Positions 25,253 through 41,760 of a DNA stretch of 46,723 nucleotides are shown here, in pieces. Position 1 is the first letter of the stretch. Each line of letters opens with the position of its first letter. This stretch comes from Firmicutes bacterium UBA3914 (lineage in GTDB: Bacteria; Bacillota; Limnochordia; Darwinibacteriales; Darwinibacteriaceae): NCBI GenBank assembly GCA_002391385.1, contig DGEY01000060.1, forward strand, positions 5,531-52,253, written 5' to 3'. The notes below the pieces were generated by a model, which had not been told where the DNA came from, did no database searches, and worked only from the letters and a program-made list of their open reading frames with translations. A program made the position numbers and the translations under genes.

Positions 25253-25668
25253 CGGTGCTGTGGGAAGGATTTGTGCAGGGAGTCAGGGGAGTTATCACCA
25301 TCGGACTGATAGTTGTTCCTTTGATGATCGTTCTGGAGATCGCCCAGGGCAACGGCTGGCTGCAGAAGCTGAACCACTACGCGGCTAAGCCCTTTAGGCG
25401 CATTGGCGTTGGCGAGGAGGGCGTTTTTCCGCTGGTGGTGGCCATGCTCTTCGGCTTGACCTACGGCTCGGGCCTGATCATCAACCATGTGCGCACCGGG
25501 CAGGTGAGCGCCAGGGAGGCAAAGGTTATCGGCACCTTCATGGCCATAGCCCATGCCCTGGTGGAAGATACCATCATCTTCCTGGTCCTGGGGGCACCGC
25601 TTTTGCTGCTGTTGGTGCCTAGGTTAGTTTTGGCCTTTGCCATGTCGTACATCGTGTCCAAACGCTAA
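25249..25668 (+). CDS. nucleoside-recognition (Gate) domain membrane protein, second subunit
   Basis: 139 aa, hydrophobic, with the start overlapping the upstream stop codon. The paired arrangement resembles SpmA/SpmB-type pairs. Confidence 0.65.
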   Translation: MTVLWEGFVQGVRGVITIGLIVVPLMIVLEIAQGNGWLQKLNHYAAKPFRRIGVGEEGVFPLVVAMLFGLTYGSGLIINHVRTGQVSAREAKVIGTFMAIAHALVEDTIIFLVLGAPLLLLLVPRLVLAFAMSYIVSKR

Positions 25669-26909
25669 GGCAGGGGCACAATTTGCAGTCCCTTGAGCAG
25701 CCAGTGGTAGAGGCCGGGGGTTAGATCCAGCTGCAGCAGTAGGCTGGTGGAACCCGTGGGTACCACCACAATCACCGCGAAGGGTTCCAGGCTGATCTGG
25801 ACTATCTCCCACTGGGCGCCCTCCGCCAGAGCGAACAGCAGGTCCGCGGTTGCCGCTGGATCCTGGCGCAGATCGGGCGCGAAGAGGGCCTCCAGCGCAC
25901 TCCGGTCTTGGTCGGCCAGGGCAGCCTGGAGATCCTGCACAAACTGCGCGCAGGAATCCCGGATTTCCTGGGGCACATCCGGTGCCGCGGGCGTGAGGTG
26001 GAAGTGGTACATCTGCAGGAAACCGGCGGTCTCCTGCCAGGCCATGGCTGCTGTATAGCGGGGGCCGCGCTCGGTGGAAAAGACTACCACATAGGTGCCG
26101 CTGGGATCCTCGGGCACCTGGACAACTTCACTGGTAACTGTGCCGAAATACATGGGCAGGCTGGCTAGATACTGGGCCAGCCCTTTTTCCTGCAGCGCTG
26201 GGCTGAGCAGCTCGCTCAGTTCAGTCAGGCTGCGCTGGTTCAAAGCCCTGGTGAACCTGTTGATCTGCAGTTGGATCCGGGAGGCGATCCCCGTGGGGCG
26301 GGGACTTTCCGTGGGAAGTTCCGCCTCTGCTTCTTCCTCCTCAACCGGTTCTGCAGCGGCTTCGCCGTTCTGGGCCAGCTCCTCCAGGGCAGCGGCTCTG
26401 CTAAGCAGCTTCACGGTGGGATACCCGGCTGAGGGCGCCAAATGGATCAGCTGGAAGGTACCTTCGGCATCAAGTTGCACCACTTCTCCCGCAGCCACTT
26501 CCCATTCTTCTGGGAGCTGCAGCACCACCGTCCATTCCTCCACTGGCGCTGTGAACTCCGGCAGCCAGAGCTGGTCCCGCCCCAGCACCGCCTCGTGCAG
26601 CTGCGGTTCCACCAACCCCTCGTAGGAGAAGGTGATTGTTTGGGGACCCAGCTCCCGCAGGGCAAAGATCACCGCGGTGCCGTGGGCAGATCTTTCCACG
26701 CTGTATTCCACCAGACTGTCGGCCCAGAATTCGGTGACGTGGGCCTCAGGGAAGAGGAGCAGTGACTGGGATGCGGTCTCCGGTTTGAGAATCACTTCCC
26801 CCGATACCCGCAGAAAACCGCTCTCCGGCAGGTAAAAAACGTGAATGCTAGCTGCTGCTGTCGCCGAGAGCAGCAGGCACAAAAGCAGTACTGCCAGGCT
26901 TCTTCTCAT
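25665..26909 (-). CDS. secreted hypothetical protein with acidic linker
   Basis: I prefer ATG 26909 (RBS GGGGGG about 8 nt upstream), which gives signal peptide MRRSLAVLLLCLLLSATAAAS. There is a central EPVEEEEAEAE linker. No family recognised. Confidence 0.62.
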   Translation of the reverse strand: MRRSLAVLLLCLLLSATAAASIHVFYLPESGFLRVSGEVILKPETASQSLLLFPEAHVTEFWADSLVEYSVERSAHGTAVIFALRELGPQTITFSYEGLVEPQLHEAVLGRDQLWLPEFTAPVEEWTVVLQLPEEWEVAAGEVVQLDAEGTFQLIHLAPSAGYPTVKLLSRAAALEELAQNGEAAAEPVEEEEAEAELPTESPRPTGIASRIQLQINRFTRALNQRSLTELSELLSPALQEKGLAQYLASLPMYFGTVTSEVVQVPEDPSGTYVVVFSTERGPRYTAAMAWQETAGFLQMYHFHLTPAAPDVPQEIRDSCAQFVQDLQAALADQDRSALEALFAPDLRQDPAATADLLFALAEGAQWEIVQISLEPFAVIVVVPTGSTSLLLQLDLTPGLYHWLLKGLQIVPLP

Positions 26910-26983
26910 CCTGTACCCCCCTAGTGATTTCCCGCGGGGCGCTCCCCGTAGGGGCCCTCCTCTCCTAATGTTTAACTTTTTCA

Positions 26984-27012
26984 TTGAAATCCCTGCCTAG
27001 AGTTGGTATAAT
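26984..27012 (+). promoter_or_regulatory. near-consensus sigma-A promoter for the aminotransferase-reductase fusion gene
   Basis: TTGAAA (26984-89), a 17-nt spacer, then TGgTATAAT (extended -10, 27004-12). Confidence 0.55.
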
Positions 27013-27016
27013 TAGC

Positions 27017-27039
27017 ATTGTGCACAAAGTGTGCTCAAT
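27017..27039 (+). promoter_or_regulatory. 10-3-10 inverted repeat just downstream of the -10 box (operator or 5'-UTR hairpin)
   Basis: ATTGTGCACA (27017-26) aag TGTGCTCAAT (27030-39), with 9 of 10 positions complementary. Confidence 0.4.
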
Positions 27040-27058
27040 ACTCCGGGGAGGTACAAGG

Positions 27059-29674
27059 ATGCATCCGTACATAGAATTTGTCAATCCGCACCTGGGAAAA
27101 CTGCTCCAGGATATCGGTCTGGATAAGCGTTTTCAGCGGGGCCAAGGCCCTTACCTCTATGACCATACGGGGCAGGAGTACCTTGACTGCATTGCCGCCT
27201 ACGGCGCGCTGCCCTTTGGCTACAACCCTCCCGAGATCTGGCGGGCCCTGCATGAACTGGAGGCGCGTCAGGAGCCCAGCTTCATCCAGCCCTCCCTTCT
27301 GGAAGCCGCGGGGGAGCTGGCCGCCCGCTTGATTGCCCTCGCCCCCAGCGGATTTCAGTATGTCACCTTTGCCAACAGCGGGGCCGAGGCTGTGGAGGCC
27401 GCCTTCAAACTGGTGCGGGCCAAAACGGGCAAACCTGTGATCCTCTCCACCAGAAACAGCTTCCACGGCAAAACGCTGGGCGCCCTGTCGGCAACCGGCA
27501 ATGAAAACTACCAAAGCGCCTTCGGGGCTCCGGTTCCGGGCTTTCGCCACATTCCCTACGGGGATCTGGAGGCCCTGGAAAGCTATCTAGCAGAACACGC
27601 CGGGGATACGGCAGCCTTTATCGTGGAGCCCATTCAGGGAGAAGGGGGCATTGTGGAGCCGCCCCAGGGCTACCTGAAGCAGGTACAGGAGCTTTGTGCC
27701 CGCCATGGGGTACTGACCATCTTCGATGAAATCCAAACTGGTTTGGGGCGTACCGGCGCGCTCTTTGCCTGCGCCGAAGAAGGGGTTACGCCCGATGTGA
27801 TGGTGTTGGCCAAGGCCCTGGGCGGAGGCCTTATTCCCATCGGAGCGGTGCTCTGCCGGGCAGAGGTCTACACAGAGGATTTCGGCCTGAAGCACTCCTC
27901 CACCTTTGCCGGCAACTCCCTGGGCGCCCGGGTGGGCCTGGCCGTCCTGGAGCTCTTGACCAAAGACGATGGTGCCCTCCTGCGGTCCGTCCGGGAAAAA
28001 GGGGCCAAGCTCAAGGCTGGCCTAGAGCGGGTCGCGGCCAAGTACCCGCAGGTGGTGAAGGCCATCCGCGGGCGCGGCTTTATGCTGGGCATCGAGTTTG
28101 TCAATTCCCGGGATCCCTATCCCCACAGCCTGCTGGGGGTTATGGCCGAGCAGGAGCTGCTCACCCCCATGGTGGCCTCTTACCTTTTGAACGTGGAGCG
28201 GGTGCGGGTGGCCCCCACCCTTAACGGTGCCAGTGTGATCCGCATCGAGCCCCCCCTGACCATGGGCGAGACGGAGATCGAACGGGTGGTGCAGGCGGTG
28301 GAACGGGCTTGCGGACTTCTCGCCTCTAGAAACACCGCTGCCTTTTTGGGTCACCTCATCGGCTACAGCCGCCCGGCTGCTTTGAACGGTGCGGCTCAGC
28401 CCCAAACGGTGGAGGAGGCCCGTCCCCAACCGGGCGATGGCCGCTTCGCCTTCTTGGTGCACCCCGTGGATTTGGACAATTACTCTGAATTCGACGCCAG
28501 CTTGGCGGACTTAACAGCTGAACAGCTGGAGGATCTCAGCTCCCGCTGGAATGATCTGGTGGAACCTTTTGTGGTGGCCAGCACAAGGGTGGTGGACAAC
28601 TGCGGCCGCAGTGCCTACGGCGATTTCATCTGCGTGCCCAAAACCGCCGCCCAGCTCTTGGCCATGGATAAGGAACAGTCCAGACGGGAGATCCTGGCTG
28701 CCATTGACTTAGCCGTGGAGCGGGGGGCGCGCCTTGTGGGACTGGGGGCCTACACCTCCGTTGTGACCATGGGGGGTAGGCAGCTCCTGCCCTACACCGA
28801 TGTGGCCCTGACCACCGGCAACAGTTACACAGTGGTTTCCGGTGTGGAAGCGGCCGTTTCAGCTGCCAAAGAGGTTGGACTGGAAATGGCCACCGCCACC
28901 GGGGCGGTGGTGGGGGCCGGTGGGGCCATCGGTAAGGCCTTGGCCATTCTCCTGAGTGAGCAGGTGCAGAACCTGATCCTGATCGGCAACCCTGCCCGTC
29001 CGGAAAAAAGCGAATACCGCATGCTCAAGGTGGCGGTGGAGATCATCCAGCACCTGCGCACCCTTGCCGGTTCCGGCCGCCAATTGGCCCCGGGCAGCTT
29101 GGGCGCCTTTGCGGCGCAGCTGGACTCTGTACCGGCGGAAGATGCGCCCTTGAGCGTGTGGGTGGAGTTTGCCCGGGAAGTGCTGGCCAGCGGCGCTCCC
29201 TTGACCTTGACTGTGGACAGCCGGGCGCACCTGCCCCGGGCCGATCTGATTCTGGCGGCCACCAGCAGCCTGGAAGCGCTGATCACCCCCGATGTGCTCA
29301 AGCGGGGTGCGGTGGTCTGTGACATGTCCAGACCCAGCAACGTGAGTAAGGAGGTGCTGGAGGAGCGCCCCGATGTCTTGGTAATCGATGGCGGAGTGAT
29401 TGCCCTGCCCGGCAGCCCCGATCTGGGCTGGAATTTCGGTTTTGAAAAGGGTACGGCCTTTGCCTGCATGTCTGAAACCATGATGCTGGCCCTGGAGGGG
29501 CGCTACGAGCACATGAGCATAGGGGCTGACCTCAGCCTGGAGCACCTGGAGCTGATGCGCGGCCTCGCCAAGAAGCTGGGCTTTACCCTGGCGGGATTTC
29601 GGGCCTTTGACCGGCCCTTGGATCCAGCTGTGTGGGAGCGGGTGCGGGCCCTGCGGAAAAAAGAGACAGCCTAA
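27059..29674 (+). CDS. bifunctional fusion: class-III PLP aminotransferase (N-terminal) + acyl-ACP reductase (AAR)-family NAD(P)-dependent thioester reductase (C-terminal)
   Basis: N-terminal half: FANSGAEAVEAA, IVEPIQGEGG, FDEIQTGLGRTG and the Lys in VLAKALGGG. C-terminal half (from about 28441): FAFLVHPVDL, GLGAYTSVV, LTTGNSYTV, GAVVGAGGAIGKA, VIDGGV and AFACMSETMMLALEG. These are colinear with my recollection of Synechococcus AAR, including the catalytic-Cys motif FACFAEAM. ATG 27059 follows GGGGAGG. Confidence 0.82.
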   Translation: MHPYIEFVNPHLGKLLQDIGLDKRFQRGQGPYLYDHTGQEYLDCIAAYGALPFGYNPPEIWRALHELEARQEPSFIQPSLLEAAGELAARLIALAPSGFQYVTFANSGAEAVEAAFKLVRAKTGKPVILSTRNSFHGKTLGALSATGNENYQSAFGAPVPGFRHIPYGDLEALESYLAEHAGDTAAFIVEPIQGEGGIVEPPQGYLKQVQELCARHGVLTIFDEIQTGLGRTGALFACAEEGVTPDVMVLAKALGGGLIPIGAVLCRAEVYTEDFGLKHSSTFAGNSLGARVGLAVLELLTKDDGALLRSVREKGAKLKAGLERVAAKYPQVVKAIRGRGFMLGIEFVNSRDPYPHSLLGVMAEQELLTPMVASYLLNVERVRVAPTLNGASVIRIEPPLTMGETEIERVVQAVERACGLLASRNTAAFLGHLIGYSRPAALNGAAQPQTVEEARPQPGDGRFAFLVHPVDLDNYSEFDASLADLTAEQLEDLSSRWNDLVEPFVVASTRVVDNCGRSAYGDFICVPKTAAQLLAMDKEQSRREILAAIDLAVERGARLVGLGAYTSVVTMGGRQLLPYTDVALTTGNSYTVVSGVEAAVSAAKEVGLEMATATGAVVGAGGAIGKALAILLSEQVQNLILIGNPARPEKSEYRMLKVAVEIIQHLRTLAGSGRQLAPGSLGAFAAQLDSVPAEDAPLSVWVEFAREVLASGAPLTLTVDSRAHLPRADLILAATSSLEALITPDVLKRGAVVCDMSRPSNVSKEVLEERPDVLVIDGGVIALPGSPDLGWNFGFEKGTAFACMSETMMLALEGRYEHMSIGADLSLEHLELMRGLAKKLGFTLAGFRAFDRPLDPAVWERVRALRKKETA

Positions 29675-29691
29675 AGAAAATGGAGTATAAT
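29663..29691 (+). promoter_or_regulatory. candidate promoter for the DegT-dapF-glpQ unit, overlapping the upstream terminator
   Basis: GAGACA (29663-68), a 17-nt spacer, then TATAAT (29686-91). Motif match only. Confidence 0.35.
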
Positions 29692-29763: not shown

Positions 29764-31044
29764 ATGAGGATGGGAGTGGTGAGCGTGGAGAAACTGGCGA
29801 TCCACGGAGGTCCTCCCGTTAGGACCAAGCCGTGGGTGTCCAAATATATGGGCAGTGAGGCCTTGGGAGCCGAAGAGAAGGCCAGGGTTCTTCAGGTGTT
29901 GGAGAAAAAGCGCATCTTCCGTTACCTCCCCGACGGTCTGGAAACATCTGAGGCCGCGGCCCTGGAAGAGGAGTACAAGCGCTTTGTGGGTACCGACTAT
30001 GCCCTGGCGGTCAATTCGGGCACTTCGGCCCTGATCTGCGCGCTGATCGCCGTGGGCGTGGGACCGGGTCATGAAGTGATCATCCCCGCCTATACCTGGG
30101 TGGCCACCGCTGCCGCGGTGGCTGTAGTGGGCGCTGTACCTGTTTTGGCGGAGGTGGATTCCAGTTTGACCTTGGATCCCCAGGATCTCGAGGCCAAGAT
30201 CACTTCCCGCACCAAGGCGGTCATTGTGGTGCACATGCGGGGGATTTCCGCGGCCATGGATGAGATTCTGGCCGTGGCCCAAAAGCACAACCTCATGGTT
30301 ATTGAGGATGTGGCCCAGGCCAATGGAGGCACTTACCGCGGCCGTCCCTTGGGCTCTTTGGGCCATGTGGGCTGCTTCAGCCTGCAGCAATCCAAAGTCA
30401 TTGCCGCGGGGGAGGGGGGCATGCTGGTCACCAACTCCGAGGAGCTGTGGCAGCGGGCGGTTTTGTACCACGATGGGGCCGGCTATCAGTTCCGTTTCCT
30501 GGAACGAAAGATACCCGCCTTCCCCGGCCAGAATTACCGCCTCACCGAGCTGCAGGCAGCCCTTTCCCTGGGCCAGCTGGAGAAAATGCCAGATCTTGTA
30601 CGCGCTACCCGGGAGAACAAGCGCAAACTGGTGGAACGGCTCCGCAACCAGGAGAAGATCGAACTTTCCCCCGTGTTCGGCACAGAGCGTGATCTGGGAG
30701 TCAGCCTGATCTTTTACGTGGCAGACGAGGAAAAGGCGAGGCTAACCGCGCAGGCTCTCACCGCAGAAGGCATCCCGGCCTTCCAGGTCTGGGACCGCAG
30801 GGCCCGCGATCAGCATATCTACGTGAACTGGGAGTTCCTCATGGCCAAGCGGGATCCCTGGGGTAGAAGTTATCCCTGGAGTTTGGCGGAGGGGAGCAGC
30901 GTGGACTATTCCCCCGAGACCTGCCCCCAGACCTTAGCCCTGTTGAGCCGGGCCGTTCAAATTCACCTCAATCACCTGGTTACCGAAGAAGACTTGCGGG
31001 ATATTGAGGCTGCCATTAACAAGGTCGCCTTTCATCTGCTGTAG
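29764..31044 (+). CDS. DegT/DnrJ/EryC1/StrS-family PLP aminotransferase
   Basis: AVNSGTSAL, IEDVAQA and the active-site Lys in FSLQQSKVIAAGEGG. The start is uncertain (ATG 29764, ATG 29770 or GTG 29785). Confidence 0.83.
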   Translation: MRMGVVSVEKLAIHGGPPVRTKPWVSKYMGSEALGAEEKARVLQVLEKKRIFRYLPDGLETSEAAALEEEYKRFVGTDYALAVNSGTSALICALIAVGVGPGHEVIIPAYTWVATAAAVAVVGAVPVLAEVDSSLTLDPQDLEAKITSRTKAVIVVHMRGISAAMDEILAVAQKHNLMVIEDVAQANGGTYRGRPLGSLGHVGCFSLQQSKVIAAGEGGMLVTNSEELWQRAVLYHDGAGYQFRFLERKIPAFPGQNYRLTELQAALSLGQLEKMPDLVRATRENKRKLVERLRNQEKIELSPVFGTERDLGVSLIFYVADEEKARLTAQALTAEGIPAFQVWDRRARDQHIYVNWEFLMAKRDPWGRSYPWSLAEGSSVDYSPETCPQTLALLSRAVQIHLNHLVTEEDLRDIEAAINKVAFHLL

Positions 31045-35209: not shown

Positions 35210-36211
35210 TTAGATCACGCCGTCCAGGTCTGCCCCGGCCAGGGCCACAACCAGATCTACACAGGCCTGGACATCTCCCAGATCCACCATTTCCGAAGGC
35301 GAGTGCACATAGCGGGTGGGGATGGAGATGGTTCCCGAAGGGACCCCTTCCTTGGTCAGGTGGATGGCCCCCGCGTCGGTGCCGCCCCGTTCCAGTACTT
35401 CCATCTGGTAGGGGATCCCTCCTGCTTCGCACAGGTCCACCAGGAGGTCTTTAACCCTGGGATGGGCAATGAGGGAGGAATCCTTGACCTTGATCGCGGC
35501 CCCCTTGCCCAAGCTGACGGCCATGTGCCTGGCCTCAGGGGTATCGCCGGTGAGGGTCACGTCCAGGGCGATGCCCAGGTCAGGGTCAAGGCCAAAGGCC
35601 GCGGTGCGGGCGCCCCTCAGGCCCACTTCTTCCTGGGTGGTGAACACGCAGTACAGGGTGTGTTTGGGTTTTTCGATCCTTCTCAGGGCTTCCACCAGTA
35701 CCGCGCAGCCAATGCGGTCATCCATGCTTTTGGCCACCAGGCGGTTCCCCAGGTCGGCGAACTCCCGGTGGAAGATGCCGAACTCCCCGATGCTCACCTT
35801 CTCCAGAGCTTCTTCTTTCGTTGCTGCGCCAATATCGATGTACAGTTTGTCCAGGGTCAGCTCTTTCCACTCGGTCTTGCCCTCTTGGTAGATGACGCCC
35901 ATGGTTCCGTTGGCAAAGCGGACCCGGTTGCCCACGAGGGTTGTGATGCCCACTCCGCCGATGGGGGAGAAGCGCAGGAATCCGTCCTCGTCGATGTAGG
36001 TGACCACAATCCCGATTTCATCGGTATGGGCCGCGAACATGATTTTCTTGCCGTCGGAGGAGCCGTGCTTGATGGCAATGAGGTTGCCTAAAACATCTGT
36101 GCGGAGTTCATCCACGTGGTCTTTGACCAGCTCTCGAATCAAGTCTGTAACTTCCCTCTCATACCCCGAAGGGCCGAAGGCCTGTGTTAGCTGCTCAATG
36201 ATGGCTTTCAA
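35210..36211 (-). CDS. M42 family metallopeptidase (TET/FrvX/YsdC-like), paralog 3 of 3
   Basis: SGYEREV, HTDEIG, DDRIG and QEEVGLRGA motifs. Confidence 0.9.
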   Translation of the reverse strand: MKAIIEQLTQAFGPSGYEREVTDLIRELVKDHVDELRTDVLGNLIAIKHGSSDGKKIMFAAHTDEIGIVVTYIDEDGFLRFSPIGGVGITTLVGNRVRFANGTMGVIYQEGKTEWKELTLDKLYIDIGAATKEEALEKVSIGEFGIFHREFADLGNRLVAKSMDDRIGCAVLVEALRRIEKPKHTLYCVFTTQEEVGLRGARTAAFGLDPDLGIALDVTLTGDTPEARHMAVSLGKGAAIKVKDSSLIAHPRVKDLLVDLCEAGGIPYQMEVLERGGTDAGAIHLTKEGVPSGTISIPTRYVHSPSEMVDLGDVQACVDLVVALAGADLDGVI

Positions 36212-37233
36212 CTCAATCCCGCCCTTTCTTCAAGCCGTGCTAGATAATGCTTAACCAGCTGGTATGCTCCTTCAAAATCGTCTTTGCACATCACTGCCGC
36301 CGGAGAGTGGATGTAGCGGCAGGGTACGGAGATCACCGCAACTTTTACCCCGGCCCGGGACAGCTGAATCTGGCCGGCATCTGTGCCCCCGGCGGTGCTG
36401 CGGCGGACCTGCACTTTGATTCCCTTTTCCGCGGCCAGGGCCAAGAGCTCCTGGACGAGTTCGGGGTTCGGGATCACCGAGCGGTCCATAACCGAGATGG
36501 CCGGTCCCTCCCCTAGGGCAGTGGCCTGTTTATGGTCGTCCGTCCCCGGCACATCGGAGGCTGTGGTCCCCTCCAGAACCAGGGCCAGATCAGGTTCCAC
36601 TTGGTAGGCGGCCACGCCGGCACCCCGCAGGCCCACTTCTTCTTGAACGGTAAAGGCGGCAATCAAGGGGAAGGAGACCTCTTCCTGCAGCAGGCGGATG
36701 AGCAGGGCGCAGCCCACCCGGTCGTCCAGGGCTTTGGCCTTCACCCTGTTTTCGCCCAGCTCTTCGTATTCGGTGGTGAAATAGGCGATTTCCCCAAGCT
36801 GCACCAGTTTCTCCGCCTCTTCTCTGTTCTTGGCGCCAATATCAATGACCATTTCCCTGATGGTAAAGGCCTTTTCCCTTTCTTCGGGCCTCTGCAGGTG
36901 GATGGGCTTGCTGCCGATCACGCCCGGCACTTTTTTCCTGCCCACCACTACCGTTTTGGCCACTAGAACCCTGGGATCAACTCCGCCGATGGGGCGGAAC
37001 TTCAGATAGCCGTCCCCGTCAATCCCCACAACCATCAAGGCCACTTCGTCCATGTGCGCGGCCAGCATCACCTTGGGTCCGGGAGCATCGGGGTTTTTAA
37101 TGGCCAAGAGGTTGCCCAGGGCATCTGTTTTCACGATCTGGACATGGGGTTCGATTGCGGCACGGATCAGGTCCCGTACCTCGTCTTCCTGCCCAGGCGC
37201 GCCGTTGGCTTGGGTTAGGCGGGCTAAAAGCAT
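36208..37233 (-). CDS. M42 family metallopeptidase, paralog 2 of 3
   Basis: PGQEDEV, HMDEVA, DDRVG and QEEVGLRGA motifs. 4-nt overlap with the downstream paralog. Confidence 0.9.
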   Translation of the reverse strand: MLLARLTQANGAPGQEDEVRDLIRAAIEPHVQIVKTDALGNLLAIKNPDAPGPKVMLAAHMDEVALMVVGIDGDGYLKFRPIGGVDPRVLVAKTVVVGRKKVPGVIGSKPIHLQRPEEREKAFTIREMVIDIGAKNREEAEKLVQLGEIAYFTTEYEELGENRVKAKALDDRVGCALLIRLLQEEVSFPLIAAFTVQEEVGLRGAGVAAYQVEPDLALVLEGTTASDVPGTDDHKQATALGEGPAISVMDRSVIPNPELVQELLALAAEKGIKVQVRRSTAGGTDAGQIQLSRAGVKVAVISVPCRYIHSPAAVMCKDDFEGAYQLVKHYLARLEERAGLS

Positions 37234-38285
37234 GTCAATCCCTCCACAAATTCATGATCGAGGCCGGCAATGAACATGGCCATTAAGCGCCCTGTAGCCT
37301 GGATGTCCCGGTAATCCAGGGTTTCCACGGGGGTGTGCATATAACGCAGGGGAATAGACAGTAAAATAGTGGCTACTCCGCTGCGAGCCACCTGCATGGC
37401 GTAGGCATCGGTTCCTCCTGGATAGGGCGAGGGGTCCAGGGAATAGCTGATGTTCCATTCCTTGGCCGTTTCCACCATGCGGGCATGCAGCTTGGGATGA
37501 ACATGGGGTCCGATGGCAATGCCCGGTCCTTTGGACAGCTTGATGGTTTCCTCTTCGCTCAGCCCCGGGGAATCACCGAAGCCCACATCTATGGCAATCC
37601 CGATATCGGGGACAATACCGTAGGTGCTGGTCACTGCCCCCCGCAGGCCAACCTCTTCCTGCACGGTGGCCACACCGTACACATCCGCCTGGTGCGTGAC
37701 GGTGGACAGGACCTGGAAGCATTCTAAAATGGCGGCTACTCCCGCCCGATCGTCAAAAGCTTTGCCGGAGAGGAAGGAGCCCGCAAGCTGGGAAACCCGG
37801 CGCTTCAGGGTGACCAGATCGCCCACCCGCACCTGGCGCTTAGCCTCTTCTGCGCTGGCAAAACCGGCGTCGATGAACAGATCTTCCATCTTCACCGCCT
37901 TGCCCTGTTCCCCCGGCGCCTGGATATGGGGCGGCTTTGCGCCGATGATACCCGTGAGTGTTCCTTTCCTGCCGTGGATTACAACTTCCTGGGCCAGCAG
38001 CACCCGCTGGTCAAAACCGCCAACAGTACTGAAGCGCAGGAAGCCTTCCTTCTCAATTTTGGTGATGATTAACCCAATTTCGTCCATGTGGGCGGCTAGC
38101 ATCACTTTGGGCCTGGGTTCTGGTCCCTGGCCCCTTTTGAGCAAGATCAGATTGCCTAGTTTATCGGTGCGAGCCTCGTCCGCCCAGGGACAGCCCTGCT
38201 TGATCAGTTCCAACAGCCCGAACTCGTAGCCTGATACACCTGGTGCTTCGCTCAAGCTGCGAAAAACGTCTTTTACATCCACCAA
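37224..38285 (-). CDS. M42 family metallopeptidase, paralog 1 of 3
   Basis: SGYEFG, HMDEIG, DDRAG and QEEVGLRGA motifs. GTG start follows GGAGGGA. Confidence 0.9.
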   Translation of the reverse strand: MVDVKDVFRSLSEAPGVSGYEFGLLELIKQGCPWADEARTDKLGNLILLKRGQGPEPRPKVMLAAHMDEIGLIITKIEKEGFLRFSTVGGFDQRVLLAQEVVIHGRKGTLTGIIGAKPPHIQAPGEQGKAVKMEDLFIDAGFASAEEAKRQVRVGDLVTLKRRVSQLAGSFLSGKAFDDRAGVAAILECFQVLSTVTHQADVYGVATVQEEVGLRGAVTSTYGIVPDIGIAIDVGFGDSPGLSEEETIKLSKGPGIAIGPHVHPKLHARMVETAKEWNISYSLDPSPYPGGTDAYAMQVARSGVATILLSIPLRYMHTPVETLDYRDIQATGRLMAMFIAGLDHEFVEGLTCF

Positions 38286-38388
38286 TTTCCCTCCTATCCT
38301 CCAGGTTTAACTGTATTATTTCTGGTTGCTAAAGGAAAAACCTGCATCAGCGAGAATTAAACTAGAGCAGGTGGAAAGGGGCTGCAGC

Positions 38389-38844
38389 ATGGTGAACAGC
38401 GGTGTCTATGTGCTCTGGCTGTATCTGCCGCGCCGGGTTTCCCTCACGGTTGGCAAACTGGGGACCTTTTCCTTTCCCCCAGGTGTCTATGCCTACAGCG
38501 GGAGCGCCCAGCGCCACCTCCAGCAGCGCATCGCCAGGCACCGCCGGGCAGCTAAGAAGCTGCACTGGCACATCGACTATTTTCGCGCCGCTGCGGAGCT
38601 GCTGGGTTTTGTCGTGTTTCCCGGGGCCCCGAAAGAAGGGGAATGCCGCTGCGCGGAGCAGCTACTGCGTTTGCCCGGAGCGGCTCTACCTGCACCAGGC
38701 CTCGGTTCCTCGGACTGCTCCTGCGGCAGTCACCTGGTCTACCTGCCCAGTCTGCAGCCTGGGCTAGTAGCGCTTGGCCACGCGGTTGAGAATATTGAGC
38801 TGGGTGCGGCAAAGCCGCTCGCATTCTTCGATGCTGGAGATTAG
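38389..38844 (+). CDS. DUF123 / GIY-YIG (Uri-superfamily) endonuclease-like protein
   Basis: GVYVLWLYL...GKLG.F.FP.GVYAYSGSA...L..RI.RH....KKLHWHIDY matches the DUF123 pattern. A C-terminal Cys cluster is present (CRCAE, SSDCSCGSH). Confidence 0.65.
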   Translation: MVNSGVYVLWLYLPRRVSLTVGKLGTFSFPPGVYAYSGSAQRHLQQRIARHRRAAKKLHWHIDYFRAAAELLGFVVFPGAPKEGECRCAEQLLRLPGAALPAPGLGSSDCSCGSHLVYLPSLQPGLVALGHAVENIELGAAKPLAFFDAGD

Positions 38845-39013: not shown

Positions 39014-40405
39014 TTGCTTTCGGAAAGCGTAATCACGGACGTGCTGTTGGCCGCCCTATCCACCGGCGGTGATTTTGCCGAGATTTTCATGGAAGACACT
39101 TTCAACACCCAGATCCGCATGCTGGACGGTGCGGTGGAAGAGGCAGTGAGCGGAAGGGACCACGGGGTAGGGATTCGCATTTTCCAAGGTCTGCGCTCGG
39201 TCTATGCCTACACCAATGACCTGAGGCGGGAGAGCTTGATGAAAACGGCCAGGGAGGCCGCGGCGGCGCTGCCTGGGGTTCCCCAGGGCAAGACGGTGGT
39301 CCTGGCCCGGATGGCCGTGGATAGGTTCAACCCGGTGCGCCTGGAGCCCAGGCAGGTTCCCCACCGTGACAAGGTTGAGGTGATGAAGAAGGCCCACCTG
39401 GCCGCGGCGGGCTTCCATGAGCAGATCACGCAGGTTGTGGTGCACTACCTGGATGTGGATCAGAATGTGCTCATTGCCAATTCCGAGGGCCTACTCGCGG
39501 AGGACCGCAGGGTGCGGACCCGGCTGTCCATCAACGCGGTGGCCACCCGGGGCGAGGAAAAACAGTCGGCTTTCCGCGGCCCCGGCCGGCACATGGGCTT
39601 TGAACTATTTGAACGCATCGATGTGGAGGAAATCGCCCGGGATGCTGCCCACAGCGCGGTGACCATGGTCAATGCCGATTACGCGCCGGGTGGGAAGTAT
39701 CCGGTGATCATCGACAACGAGTTTGGCGGGGTCATTTTCCACGAGGCCTGCGGCCACAGCCTGGAAGCCACCAGCGTGGCCAAGGGGGTTTCCGAGTTCA
39801 GCGGCAAGCTCGGGGAAAAGATCGCCAGCGAGCTGGTGACCGCGGTGGATGACGGCACCATCCCCAACGCCTGGGGGTCCCAGAACATCGACGATGAGGG
39901 TACCAAAACCAGAAGAAATGTGCTCATCGAGAAGGGCATACTCAAAGGGTATATGATCGATCGCCTCAACGCCCGCCGCATGGGTATGGAACCCACCGGC
40001 AATGCCCGGAGGCAGTCGTATAAATTCGCCCCCACCTCCCGCATGACCAATACCTTTATCTGTGCCGGTGAATCCACCCGCGAGGAGATCATCGCCAACA
40101 CCGAATACGGCTTGTACGCTAAGCGCATGGGCGGCGGTTCAGTGAACCCAGCCACCGGTGAGTTCAACTTCGCGGTGGCGGAGGGCTACATGGTGCGGGG
40201 CGGCAAGATCGCCGAACCTGTGCGGGGAGCCACCCTCATCGGCAGGGGTTCGGAGATCCTGCAGAAGATCGACATGGTGGCCTCCAACTTGGCCACGGGC
40301 CAGGGTATGTGCGGTTCGGTGAGCGGCTCCATCCCCGCAGATGTGGGTCAGCCCACCATCAGGGTAACAGAGATGACTGTAGGCGGACGGAAGGAGGCCA
40401 ACTGA
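39014..40405 (+). CDS. tldD: TldD-family metalloprotease
   Basis: HEACGHSLE zinc motif in full-length TldD-like sequence. TTG start follows GGGAGGG. Confidence 0.92.
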   Translation: MLSESVITDVLLAALSTGGDFAEIFMEDTFNTQIRMLDGAVEEAVSGRDHGVGIRIFQGLRSVYAYTNDLRRESLMKTAREAAAALPGVPQGKTVVLARMAVDRFNPVRLEPRQVPHRDKVEVMKKAHLAAAGFHEQITQVVVHYLDVDQNVLIANSEGLLAEDRRVRTRLSINAVATRGEEKQSAFRGPGRHMGFELFERIDVEEIARDAAHSAVTMVNADYAPGGKYPVIIDNEFGGVIFHEACGHSLEATSVAKGVSEFSGKLGEKIASELVTAVDDGTIPNAWGSQNIDDEGTKTRRNVLIEKGILKGYMIDRLNARRMGMEPTGNARRQSYKFAPTSRMTNTFICAGESTREEIIANTEYGLYAKRMGGGSVNPATGEFNFAVAEGYMVRGGKIAEPVRGATLIGRGSEILQKIDMVASNLATGQGMCGSVSGSIPADVGQPTIRVTEMTVGGRKEAN

Positions 40406-41760
40406 TGGATTTTCGGGAGTTTAAGGAACGTGTCTTCGCGGCTGGGAAGGCCAACGGCCTGGAGGAACTGGAAGTCTACGCCACCCGTTCCCGCAGTGTG
40501 AACGTGCGGGTGTTTGATGGTCAGGTGGATGATTACCGGGTCAGCGTAGAGCAGGGTGTGGGCCTGCGGGCCCGCTTCGGGGGCAAAGTGGGCTATGCCT
40601 ATGTGGAAAAACTGGATGAGGATTCCGTGGACTTCCTAGTCCAGGGGGTCAAGGCCAATGCCCAGATCATCGAATCCGCCGACGAAGTGGTTTTCCACGA
40701 GGGTTCAGCGAGTTATCCCCAGGTTGTGTGTTACAATGAAGATCTGGACCGCCTCTCTCCAGAGGAGATGATGGCCTTCTGCCTGGAGCTGGAAAAAACC
40801 GCTTTGGCCGCGGACGAACGGGTGTTCAAAGTGTCCAACGCCGTGACAGGCTGCGGGCAGACCGAGGTCTATATCGCCAACACCAGGGGCCTGGAACAGG
40901 GGTACAGAAGCAATGGGGTATTCAGCTACCTCAGTGCTGTGGTGCGCCAAAACGGCCAGGTCAAAACGGGGTATAAAGTCCTGTTTGACCGGGATTGGTC
41001 CACGTTCCAGGCTGATAAGATGGCCAGGGAAGCGGTGGAGGAAGCGGTATCCCTCTTGGGGGCTTCCAGCGTGTCCTCGGGCAGCTATCGGGTCTTGCTG
41101 CGGCGGGATGTGGCCCGGGAGCTTCTGGCCACTTTCGTCCCTGTTTTCTCCGCCGAATCGGTGCAAAAGGGGCTTTCGCTTCTCAAGGGCAAGTTGGGCC
41201 AGACCATCGCCAGTCCCCTGATCACCTTAGTTGATGACCCTCTGCTGGAAAACGGTGCCGGATCTGCTCCCTTTGACGGCGAAGGGGTGGCAGCCCGCAC
41301 CAAACGGGTGATTGAAGCTGGCCGCTTAACCACTTTCCTGCACAACCTGAAAACGGCCCGCAAAGATGGGGTGGACTCTACCGGCAACGCCTCCCGGCCC
41401 TCCTTTAAATCGCCCGTGGGTATTGCTCCCACCAACTTCTTCATTGAACCGGGGGAATATGCTTATCCTGAGCTAGTGGAGAGCCTGGATGATGGCCTAA
41501 TCATCATTGATGTGCAGGGAACCCACTCCGGTGCCAATCCCGTTTCCGGCGACTTTTCCCTGGGCGCCTTCGGCTACCTGGTGGAGGGCGGGAGAATCGT
41601 CCGGCCCGTGGATCAGATTACCATCGCCGGCAACTTCTTTAAGCTGCTGGAATCCGTAGAGGCTATCGGGTCTGACCTGGAGTTTGAAGTACCCAGTGTG
41701 AGGGGCAATGTGGGTTCACCTTCCCTGATCATCAGCGGGCTGGCCGTGGCCGGCAACTAG
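40405..41760 (+). CDS. pmbA: PmbA/TldE-family protease partner
   Basis: ATG 40405 overlaps the tldD stop codon (TGATG). PmbA-like sequence (GDFSLGAFGYLVEGG). Confidence 0.9.
   Translation: MDFREFKERVFAAGKANGLEELEVYATRSRSVNVRVFDGQVDDYRVSVEQGVGLRARFGGKVGYAYVEKLDEDSVDFLVQGVKANAQIIESADEVVFHEGSASYPQVVCYNEDLDRLSPEEMMAFCLELEKTALAADERVFKVSNAVTGCGQTEVYIANTRGLEQGYRSNGVFSYLSAVVRQNGQVKTGYKVLFDRDWSTFQADKMAREAVEEAVSLLGASSVSSGSYRVLLRRDVARELLATFVPVFSAESVQKGLSLLKGKLGQTIASPLITLVDDPLLENGAGSAPFDGEGVAARTKRVIEAGRLTTFLHNLKTARKDGVDSTGNASRPSFKSPVGIAPTNFFIEPGEYAYPELVESLDDGLIIIDVQGTHSGANPVSGDFSLGAFGYLVEGGRIVRPVDQITIAGNFFKLLESVEAIGSDLEFEVPSVRGNVGSPSLIISGLAVAGN

Follow-up and report, generated by a model that had tools for sequence, protein, structure and literature searches.

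A transaminase–thioester reductase fusion protein of Candidatus Darwinibacter is a Limnochordia member of a known family of probable acyl-thioester-to-amine enzymes

A 46.7-kb stretch of DNA from Candidatus Darwinibacter (class Limnochordia; anaerobic digester), called the window here at its full length, carries at positions 27059-29674 a single plus-strand gene of 871 codons. Its product joins a class-III, pyridoxal 5'-phosphate (PLP)-dependent aminotransferase to a domain with the fold of acyl-acyl carrier protein (ACP) reductase, or AAR, and we think it highly probable that this fusion is a bifunctional enzyme of the TamH/Tmar_2123 type. The initial annotation of this DNA had proposed a transaminase fused to an AAR-family domain, which profile and fold matches bear out. 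It had also taken the fusion for an enzyme that nobody had characterized, and there it was mistaken: the architecture was published between 2021 and 2024 and has been partly tested in PtTamH, PigE, PP_2782/KecF and a set of thermophile fusions. The Darwinibacter fusion is thus a Limnochordia member added to a known, partly characterized family, not new enzymology. The gene and the parts of its product that bear on this assignment are as follows.

27059..29674, plus strand: coding sequence of the transaminase-reductase fusion, 871 aa (open reading frame and domain profile matches)
27134..28309, plus strand: class-III (fold-type I) PLP aminotransferase domain, residues 26-417 (Pfam PF00202)
27812..27814, plus strand: Lys252 codon AAG, predicted PLP Schiff-base lysine in VLAKALGGG (aligned with the PigE lysine in MLSKSLSGG; codon verified)
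28346..28438, plus strand: Pro/Gln-rich inter-domain linker ending GYSRPAALNGAAQPQTVEEARPQPGDG, residues ~430-460 (DSSP and alignment)
28439..29638, plus strand: AAR-fold thioester reductase domain, residues ~461-860 (profile, PDB and fold matches)
28913..28933, plus strand: putative nucleotide-binding motif GAGGAIG, residues 619-625 (aligned with AAR GATGDIG)
29465..29467, plus strand: Cys803 codon TGC, predicted acyl-accepting catalytic cysteine, within AFACMSETMMLALEG (aligned with AAR Cys294 and the PigE cysteine)

The N-terminal half matches the class-III aminotransferase profile over essentially its full length. Pfam PF00202 (Aminotran_3) scored 309.4 bits (E 4e-92) against a gathering cut-off of 30.5, covering profile positions 14-402 of 403. 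The PLP-binding motifs EPIQGEGG (residue 190) and DEIQTG, the latter within DEIQTGLGRTG (residue 223), accompany the Schiff-base lysine in LAKALGGG (residue 250). That lysine, Lys252, is invariant in the alignment on which we assessed conservation, which holds 12 full-length homologues at 57-83% identity. The nearest solved sequences are the transaminase domain of PigE (4PPM; 313 bits, E 2.4e-92) and the putrescine aminotransferase YgjG (291 bits), followed by acetylornithine and ornithine aminotransferases. A Foldseek search with the full-length model returned transaminases exclusively, with the same top matches, PigE 4PPM and YgjG. Since the full-length model gave these alone, the C-terminal domain was modelled separately.

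Between the two halves lies the linker, the most variable stretch of the full-length homologue alignment; DSSP assigns neither helix nor strand to residues 434-460. Beyond it, we scanned the reductase half as the last 441 residues of the fusion. Among NCBIfam profiles, the PigE N-terminal domain scored 154 bits and TIGR04058 (AcACP_reductase) 76.6 bits (E 2e-21), and both matches span the whole C-terminal domain. The closest PDB sequences were again PigE (4PPM, E 1.6e-24) and a Synechococcus AAR chain (6JZQ, E 3.6e-15). Judged by these scores, the similarity of the C-terminal half to AAR and PigE is far beyond chance.

Motif by motif, the translation agrees with what had been read from the DNA. 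All motifs quoted in the initial annotation are present where it had placed them, those of the reductase half being FAFLVH (residue 463), GAYTSVV (563), LTTGNSYTV (584), VVGAGGAIGKA (617), VIDGGV (775) and AFACMSETMMLALEG (800). The block-by-block pairing with cyanobacterial AAR that it had proposed also lines up in the alignment with 6JZQ, where GAYTSVV faces GGFTSII, TTGNSYT faces TTGNTHT, VVGAGGAIGKA faces VVGATGDIGSA, and ACMSETMMLALEG faces ACFAEAMLLEFEG. This last pair sets Cys803 on AAR Cys294, and the TGC codon at 29465-67 proposed as catalytic is indeed that of Cys803. The matching cysteine of PigE is Cys296 in the Serratia 39006 protein (PMC8341465). A proper alignment might have cost the fusion this residue, but Cys803 is retained and invariant in all 12 full-length and 8 domain sequences. 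G619, A620, G622, I624 and G625 are likewise invariant in the 12-homologue alignment, and the domain therefore carries both the equivalent of AAR C294 and a GxGxxG motif, as expected of a transaminase-AAR fusion. Mean column identity across the Limnochordia is 71% for the fusion in the full-length alignment, and that of the C-terminal domain alone is 67%. The latter figure speaks for strong selection on the reductase domain and makes a relic unlikely.

The fold points the same way. An AlphaFold model of residues 455-871 (predicted local distance difference test score, pLDDT, 84.9; predicted template modelling score, pTM, 0.85) found AAR as its best Foldseek match (6JZU/6JZY, E 1.5e-20), with a target-normalized TM-score (TMt) of 0.79. 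The second-best matches, at E ~1e-18, were entries titled 'TAD from Carmabin Biosynthetic Pathway'. These 2025 releases (9E4S, 9E4U, 9E50 and 9E56) are only 15-16% identical to residues 455-871; forms with NAD(H) bound are among them, as is a Cys2238-dephosphoCoA disulfide. At least 13 orders of magnitude separate these from the next, unrelated folds, which are FolD, formate dehydrogenase and shikimate dehydrogenase (E 2e-5 to 5e-4, TM at most 0.45); glutamyl-tRNA reductase (GluTR) is not among the top 50 Foldseek matches of this model. The TIGR04058 score falls short of that family's equivalog cut-off (76.6 versus 449.7 bits). The C-terminal domain is homologous to AAR and shares its fold, but is not an AAR orthologue.

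These features suggest a mechanism in three steps. Cys803 of the AAR-fold domain would accept the acyl group of a phosphopantetheine thioester (acyl-ACP, possibly acyl-CoA), and NAD(P)H bound at GAGGAIG would reduce the Cys803 thioester to an aldehyde. The transaminase domain, working through Lys252 and PLP/pyridoxamine 5'-phosphate (PMP), would then convert the aldehyde to a primary amine, probably with L-glutamate as amino donor, and transamination in cis would mean that the reactive aldehyde is not released. Domain identities, fold and conserved catalytic residues are all those of such an enzyme, and the protein is closely homologous to one that has been expressed, a relationship we treat as orthology. 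Its reductase activity, cofactor, amino donor, channelling and substrate we infer from homologues. On sequence, fold and the literature on those homologues, the thioester-to-aldehyde-to-primary-amine chemistry advanced in the initial annotation is well supported. For Ca. Darwinibacter itself the likeliest candidate substrate is an aliphatic acyl chain, borne by the housekeeping ACP or by a carrier whose gene lies elsewhere in the genome.

How widely is this architecture distributed? The 871-residue protein or near-identical variants occur on more than 200 contigs that their sources name Limnochordia or Candidatus Darwinibacter, and full-length homologues at 56-85% identity are found across the Limnochordia and in Symbiobacterium. 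Scanned with the C-terminal domain, 1.84 billion cluster representatives gave 2847 proteins at E ≤1e-3, 623 of them at E ≤1e-30. The best 150 included 43 of fusion size (800-1010 aa), 34 stand-alone domains (330-440 aa), nine of ~1400 aa and 12 of more than 1450 aa; in the ~1400-aa class the position of the match shows a transaminase-reductase core with a C-terminal extension. By these counts the fusion architecture is common. When genome contigs were scanned with the full-length alignment, stand-alone EPIQGEGG aminotransferases dominated the matches and only about six full-length relatives emerged; the C-terminal domain alone proved effective on metagenome contigs. The 61 fusion loci from genomes and metagenomes (numbered L001 and so on) fell into 46 groups at 80% identity. 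We compared neighbourhoods across these 46 dereplicated groups, as the initial annotation had recommended, and found no universal neighbour; the best candidates are clade-specific.

The clearest partners belong to relatives at 48-50% identity, which carry AMP-binding domains of the fatty acyl-AMP ligase (FAAL) type and phosphopantetheine-binding (PP-binding) domains, either fused N-terminally or in an adjacent gene. Scanning showed FAAL and carrier domains ahead of the transaminase-reductase core in the four-domain proteins of L126 (6395-11257) and L129 (5498-11308), and similar size suggests the same type for L130, L133 and L138 (1609-1672 aa). Where the partner is a separate gene, it stands directly upstream: in L142 it has both domains, in L135 the gene scanned has AMP-binding domains only, and in L144 we infer it from a cluster-mate of equal length. 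Because FAAL-ACP domains are fused or adjacent in these relatives, carrier-bound acyl chains may well be the usual substrates of the fusion family. The largest relatives reach 1600-1977 aa; in L166 (5186-11119) a GNAT/FemAB-like N-terminal extension takes the place of FAAL-ACP, and an MmgE/PrpD-family gene often follows these very large proteins.

A second kind of neighbour is a 307-aa protein annotated as 'quinate 5-dehydrogenase' (WP_011194900), encoded directly upstream of the fusions of the Symbiobacterium-type loci L001, L003, L107 and L111 and also upstream of stand-alone AAR-like genes in L149, L150, L153, L157, L162 and L167. A gene for a 174-aa helix-turn-helix (HTH) protein precedes it in L001, L003, L107 and L111 and, among the stand-alone loci, in at least L153, L157 and L162. 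The partner positions are 8508-9977 in L001 and 8475-9972 in L003, and further loci with the 307-aa protein include L158 and L159. Pfam, NCBIfam and the PDB sequences gave no match for this protein, whose profile is also dissimilar to that of the AAR-like domain; it looks like an uncharacterized conserved partner of AAR-like reductases. At the loci examined, the stand-alone AAR-like genes lie between dusB and greA-lysS. We considered a beta-alanine/CoA link from the coaX gene near these homologues and discarded it, as coaX-dusB-greA-lysS is a generic housekeeping block that lends it no support.

The third is a DapB-like gene 58-118 nt downstream of the fusion in L005 (12746-13480), L087 (10695-11435) and L093, whose fusions are 63-66% identical to the window protein. 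Canonical DapB has the motif HHxxKxDxPSGTA with a His-His dyad. The proteins of L005 and L087 narrowly pass TIGR00036 (147 and 144 bits, cut-off 122) but read YNPDK and YPRSK where canonical DapB has HHxxK, so that the dyad is lost; these neighbours may be cyclic-imine reductases with a different substrate. A role for the fusion in the lysine/diaminopimelate (DAP) pathway, which might be read from dapF downstream in the window and in close relatives, the dapB-like gene in the three more distant relatives and lysS near the stand-alone homologues, was rejected: the adjacency follows long-range synteny, and the L005 and L087 proteins lack the catalytic His-His dyad.

Within the window itself, the fusion sits among housekeeping genes. 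We scanned the 40 open reading frames of at least 150 aa, which cover most of its 46.7 kb, against Pfam and found mnmA, pckA, a CCA-adding enzyme, psuG/psuK, GlxRS, pgi, manA, znuABC, rluD, dapF and GDPD, together with ABC exporters, three M42 peptidases, tldD/pmbA, an energy-coupling factor (ECF) S-component and a GH65 phosphorylase. None of the 40 encodes a carrier protein, AMP-ligase, polyketide synthase or nonribosomal peptide synthetase (PKS/NRPS), fatty-acid gene or aldehyde-deformylating oxygenase (ADO), and a regular-expression search of all six frames found no phosphopantetheine attachment motif. A biosynthetic gene cluster (BGC) in the window was rejected on these two results. The initial annotation was thus right that no ADO is nearby, and the AAR-ADO gene pairing does not occur among the scanned frames. 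Its suggestion of a primary, perhaps fatty, amine fared less evenly: 'fatty' is plausible, but a carrier protein or acyl-activating gene is absent from the 46-kb window. The HTH and 307-aa partners of the Symbiobacterium type were also looked for in the window, and neither is present.

Four further features lie next to the gene.

26984..27012, plus strand: candidate sigma-70-like promoter, TTGAAA-17 nt-TATAAT with an upstream TG (extended); 11 of 12 consensus matches
27047..27051, plus strand: ribosome-binding site GGAGG, 7 nt before ATG 27059
25665..26984, minus strand: gene of a divergent 439-aa protein with a signal-peptide-like N-terminus (no Pfam or NCBIfam match)
29764..31044, plus strand: DegT/DnrJ/EryC1-family aminotransferase gene (Pfam PF01041, E 4e-77)

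The open frame of the fusion runs from a TTG at 26984 to 29674, with the TAA stop at 29672-29674. ATG 27059, rather than TTG 26984, is the likely start, as GGAGG precedes it and homologues begin MHPY or MHPF at the same position. The site at 26984-27012, directly upstream, is promoter-like by consensus match and stands as a candidate. About 75 nt separate the start codon of the fusion from that of the divergent 439-aa protein, which has an acidic low-complexity stretch and homologues at the same position in L005, L085-L091, L094 and L096, all within the Limnochordia. On the other side, the DegT-family gene scores under every NCBIfam equivalog cut-off (best, LegC-like, 187 bits versus 420), has a promoter-like site of its own at 29663-29691, and lies downstream of the fusion in 5 of the 46 groups, each of them from the Limnochordia. 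In every close relative from this class it stands between the fusion (in L087, the DapB-like gene) and dapF. The local order there is an opposite-strand exported protein, the fusion, the DapB-like gene (only in L005, L087 and L093), the DegT aminotransferase, dapF and GDPD. This conserved order is weak evidence of a functional link because it is embedded in a much longer synteny, from phosphoglucose isomerase (PGI) to the M42 peptidases; both the DegT gene and the 439-aa protein are candidate functional partners, as yet unproven. Further along the window, the three tandem M42 paralogues (glutamyl aminopeptidase/endoglucanase-like; 35210-38285, minus strand) form a triplet kept in related Limnochordia contigs, and a TldD/PmbA metallopeptidase pair (39014-41760, plus strand) has a DUF123 protein just upstream (38326-38844).

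We weighed three other accounts of the fusion. It is very improbable that the C-terminal domain is a shikimate/quinate-type or amino-acid dehydrogenase, or GluTR-like, as the older COG5322 label implies. Source annotations do say 'predicted amino acid dehydrogenase' (COG5322), and THF_DHG_CYH_C (21 bits) and Shikimate_DH (19.1 bits) match weakly over the Rossmann segment, residues 718-768. Those matches, however, cover only some 50 residues and lie below their gathering thresholds (24.3 for Shikimate_DH), whereas AAR and PigE reach 76.6 and 154 bits over the whole domain. In the comparison that was to decide against an AAR-family domain, Shikimate_DH (19.1 bits) and hemA (13.4 bits) did not beat AAR. 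Foldseek placed shikimate dehydrogenase at E 4.8e-4 and TM 0.32-0.45 against 1.5e-20 and TMt 0.79 for AAR, the AAR catalytic cysteine is invariant, and orthologous domains showed no alcohol dehydrogenase activity (PMC10829540). On HMM scores and fold search together we rejected the shikimate dehydrogenase, GluTR and amino-acid dehydrogenase identities. An active transaminase with a catalytically silent, structural or regulatory C-terminal domain, so that the protein acts as an omega-transaminase on free aldehydes or amines, seems to us improbable, if less so. The closest expressed orthologues have shown transaminase activity only and their transaminase-only truncations are active (PMC10829540), and PtTamH is inactive on acyl-CoA alone (PMC9594044). 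Against this, the reductase domain of PtTamH works once supplied with its acyl-ACP (PMC9594044), the Darwinibacter domain is strongly constrained (67%) with the Cys, GxGxxG and many other residues invariant, and FAAL-ACP modules fused or adjacent in relatives make sense only with a working reductase.

That the chemistry is the same but the substrate a small or functionalized acyl thioester (keto-acyl as for PigE, amino-acyl or malonyl) rather than fatty acyl is a possibility we take seriously, though on balance we doubt it. The product would then be an amino-ketone that closes into an imine, or else a diamine or omega-amino acid, processed further by the DapB-like reductase and the DegT-type aminotransferase in a conserved, non-BGC Limnochordia pathway. 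The nearest solved transaminases, PigE with its keto-aldehyde substrate and YgjG, are what this account would predict, as is a housekeeping context devoid of lipid genes. A DapB-like gene next to the fusion in L005, L087 and L093, with the His-His dyad lost in the first two, would fit a changed cyclic-imine substrate, and in every close Limnochordia relative the DegT-family gene comes after the fusion. The 71% mean column identity across the class would further suggest a core rather than accessory role. But with long-range synteny from PGI to the M42 peptidases, shared ancestry alone may account for these adjacencies; the DegT gene is preceded by a promoter-like site of its own, and no neighbour is conserved across the 46 groups. 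Where relatives have a clear partner it is of the FAAL-ACP kind, pointing to fatty acids, and the thermophile orthologues favoured long aliphatic aldehydes in vitro (PMC10829540).

Several points also count against a TamH/Tmar_2123-type enzyme acting on fatty acyl chains. No reductase activity has been measured for the Firmicutes clade of fusions; for Tm/Ts/TfFusion the C-terminal domains' activity is stated to be not determined (PMC10829540), and PtTamH, whose reductase works, is only ~28-32% identical to this clade. Scores far below the TIGR04058 and NF053554 cut-offs mean that substrate specificity is not transferable from AAR or PigE. Neither a carrier protein nor an acyl-AMP ligase, nor any fatty-acid or lipid gene, is present among the scanned frames of the window, and a transaminase nearest PigE and putrescine aminotransferase, which act on functionalized or short substrates, leaves 'fatty' not established. 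We nevertheless favour the bifunctional thioester reductase-transaminase over the accounts above. As to its role, we would tentatively put forward, without thinking it probable, that the fusions of Limnochordia and of Symbiobacterium/Thermaerobacter, rather than tailoring natural products, take part in a conserved pathway that is fixed in the chromosome and has neither a ligase nor a carrier of its own, and turn a housekeeping acyl-ACP or a small keto- or amino-acyl thioester into an amine metabolite. That metabolite might be a diamine, a cyclic imine, or an envelope alkylamine or aminolipid precursor; possible partners include the DegT-type aminotransferase, the DapB-like reductase without the His-His dyad and the 307-aa 'quinate 5-dehydrogenase' protein.

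Natural 'acid-to-amine' fusion enzymes are of interest for biocatalytic amine synthesis, and thermophile versions have already been expressed. Across the family the reductase-transaminase core may stand by itself, have a FAAL-ACP gene next to it or form part of a four-domain FAAL-ACP-transaminase-reductase protein, a range of forms that supports carrier-bound acyl substrates as the usual ones. The Darwinibacter gene adds a strongly conserved fusion that stands among housekeeping genes, outside any biosynthetic cluster. Should these digester and thermophile bacteria make a fatty amine or another amine metabolite, that would be new physiology.

Among known systems, the one-polypeptide layout of N-terminal class-III transaminase and C-terminal AAR-like domain is that of TamH, PP_2782 and Tmar_2123. 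The closest expressed relative is TmFusion (Tmar_2123) of Thermaerobacter marianensis, which has the same domain order and, in the sequence given in the supplement of PMC10829540, is 62% identical to the window protein in the transaminase and 50% in the reductase. Prout, Hailes & Ward (RSC Adv 2024) expressed the P. putida protein PP_2782, which is homologous to KecF, and three thermophile fusions, belonging to T. marianensis, T. subterraneus and Thermincola ferriacetica (Tm/Ts/TfFusion), measured their transaminase activity, and mapped AAR Cys294 and GATGDIG onto all of them (PMC10829540). The transaminase activity of the thermophile fusions preferred long aliphatic aldehydes and accepted L-Glu, transaminase-only truncations stayed active, and the orthologous C-terminal domains were negative for alcohol dehydrogenase activity (PMC10829540). 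Symbiobacterium thermophilum WP_011194901 (P0117), listed there as an orthologue (PMC10829540), is 59% identical overall to the window protein. TmFusion, TsFusion and WP_011194901 share with it an N-terminal MHP(Y/F)…VNPHLG, the conserved Cys and GxGxxG, and a likewise non-BGC context. The differences are of host class (Limnochordia rather than Thermaerobacter or Symbiobacterium), of linker length (~30 aa, versus more than 100 aa in the T. marianensis orthologue) and of neighbours: Symbiobacterium has the HTH and 307-aa genes upstream, whereas the window has the divergent exported protein and, downstream, the DegT aminotransferase.

PtTamH, the 941-aa enzyme of the Pseudoalteromonas tunicata tambjamine YP1 pathway, begins with an omega-transaminase and ends with an AAR-like thioester reductase (PMC9594044), the same two domains in the same order as the window protein, and carries acyl-ACP via the aldehyde to a primary amine. 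In vitro, supplied with TamA (its ligase-ACP protein), ATP, NADH and L-Glu, it turned a C12 acid into the C12 amine, dodecylamine; the C12 aldehyde was detectable when Glu was left out; and the enzyme was ACP-dependent and NADH-specific, acyl-CoA not being accepted and NADPH being ineffective (PMC9594044). It is ~28-32% identical to the thermophile fusions (PMC10829540). PtTamH sits in a natural-product cluster with its dedicated partner TamA, and both partner and cluster are absent from the window; the FAAL-ACP domains of the 48-50%-identity relatives reproduce the logic of TamA plus TamH in one operon or polypeptide.

PigE, of the MAP pathway to prodigiosin in Serratia, has been reassigned as a thioester reductase that also transaminates the resulting aldehyde (PMC8341465). 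It is the best-scoring characterized homologue of both halves of the window protein (NF053554, 563.8 bits; 4PPM), yet its reductase is N-terminal and its transaminase C-terminal, the reverse order. The alignment to NF053554 is accordingly swapped, with the transaminase half on profile positions 383-730 and the C-terminal half on 1-193; it is not collinear, and the score lies below the equivalog cut-off of 850 bits. PigE belongs to the pig cluster, and its substrate, a 3-acetyl-octanoyl thioester, ends as a cyclic imine. The AAR of Synechococcus elongatus (6JZQ/6JZU/6JZY) shares the fold, and its Cys294 and GATGDIG align at ~21% identity to the window protein, in which its ping-pong acyl-enzyme mechanism would be expected too; AAR stands alone and passes its aldehyde to ADO, whereas the window protein has a fused transaminase and no ADO. 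PP_2782/KecF, of the Pseudomonas koreenceine-type alkaloid clusters, has the same transaminase-AAR architecture as the window protein and is ~29% identical to it over 768 aligned residues, with a larger transaminase domain that carries insertions. It is embedded in a type-II-PKS-like cluster, where its proposed role is to release an ACP-bound polyketide as an aldehyde that is then aminated (PMC10829540, PMC6498172).

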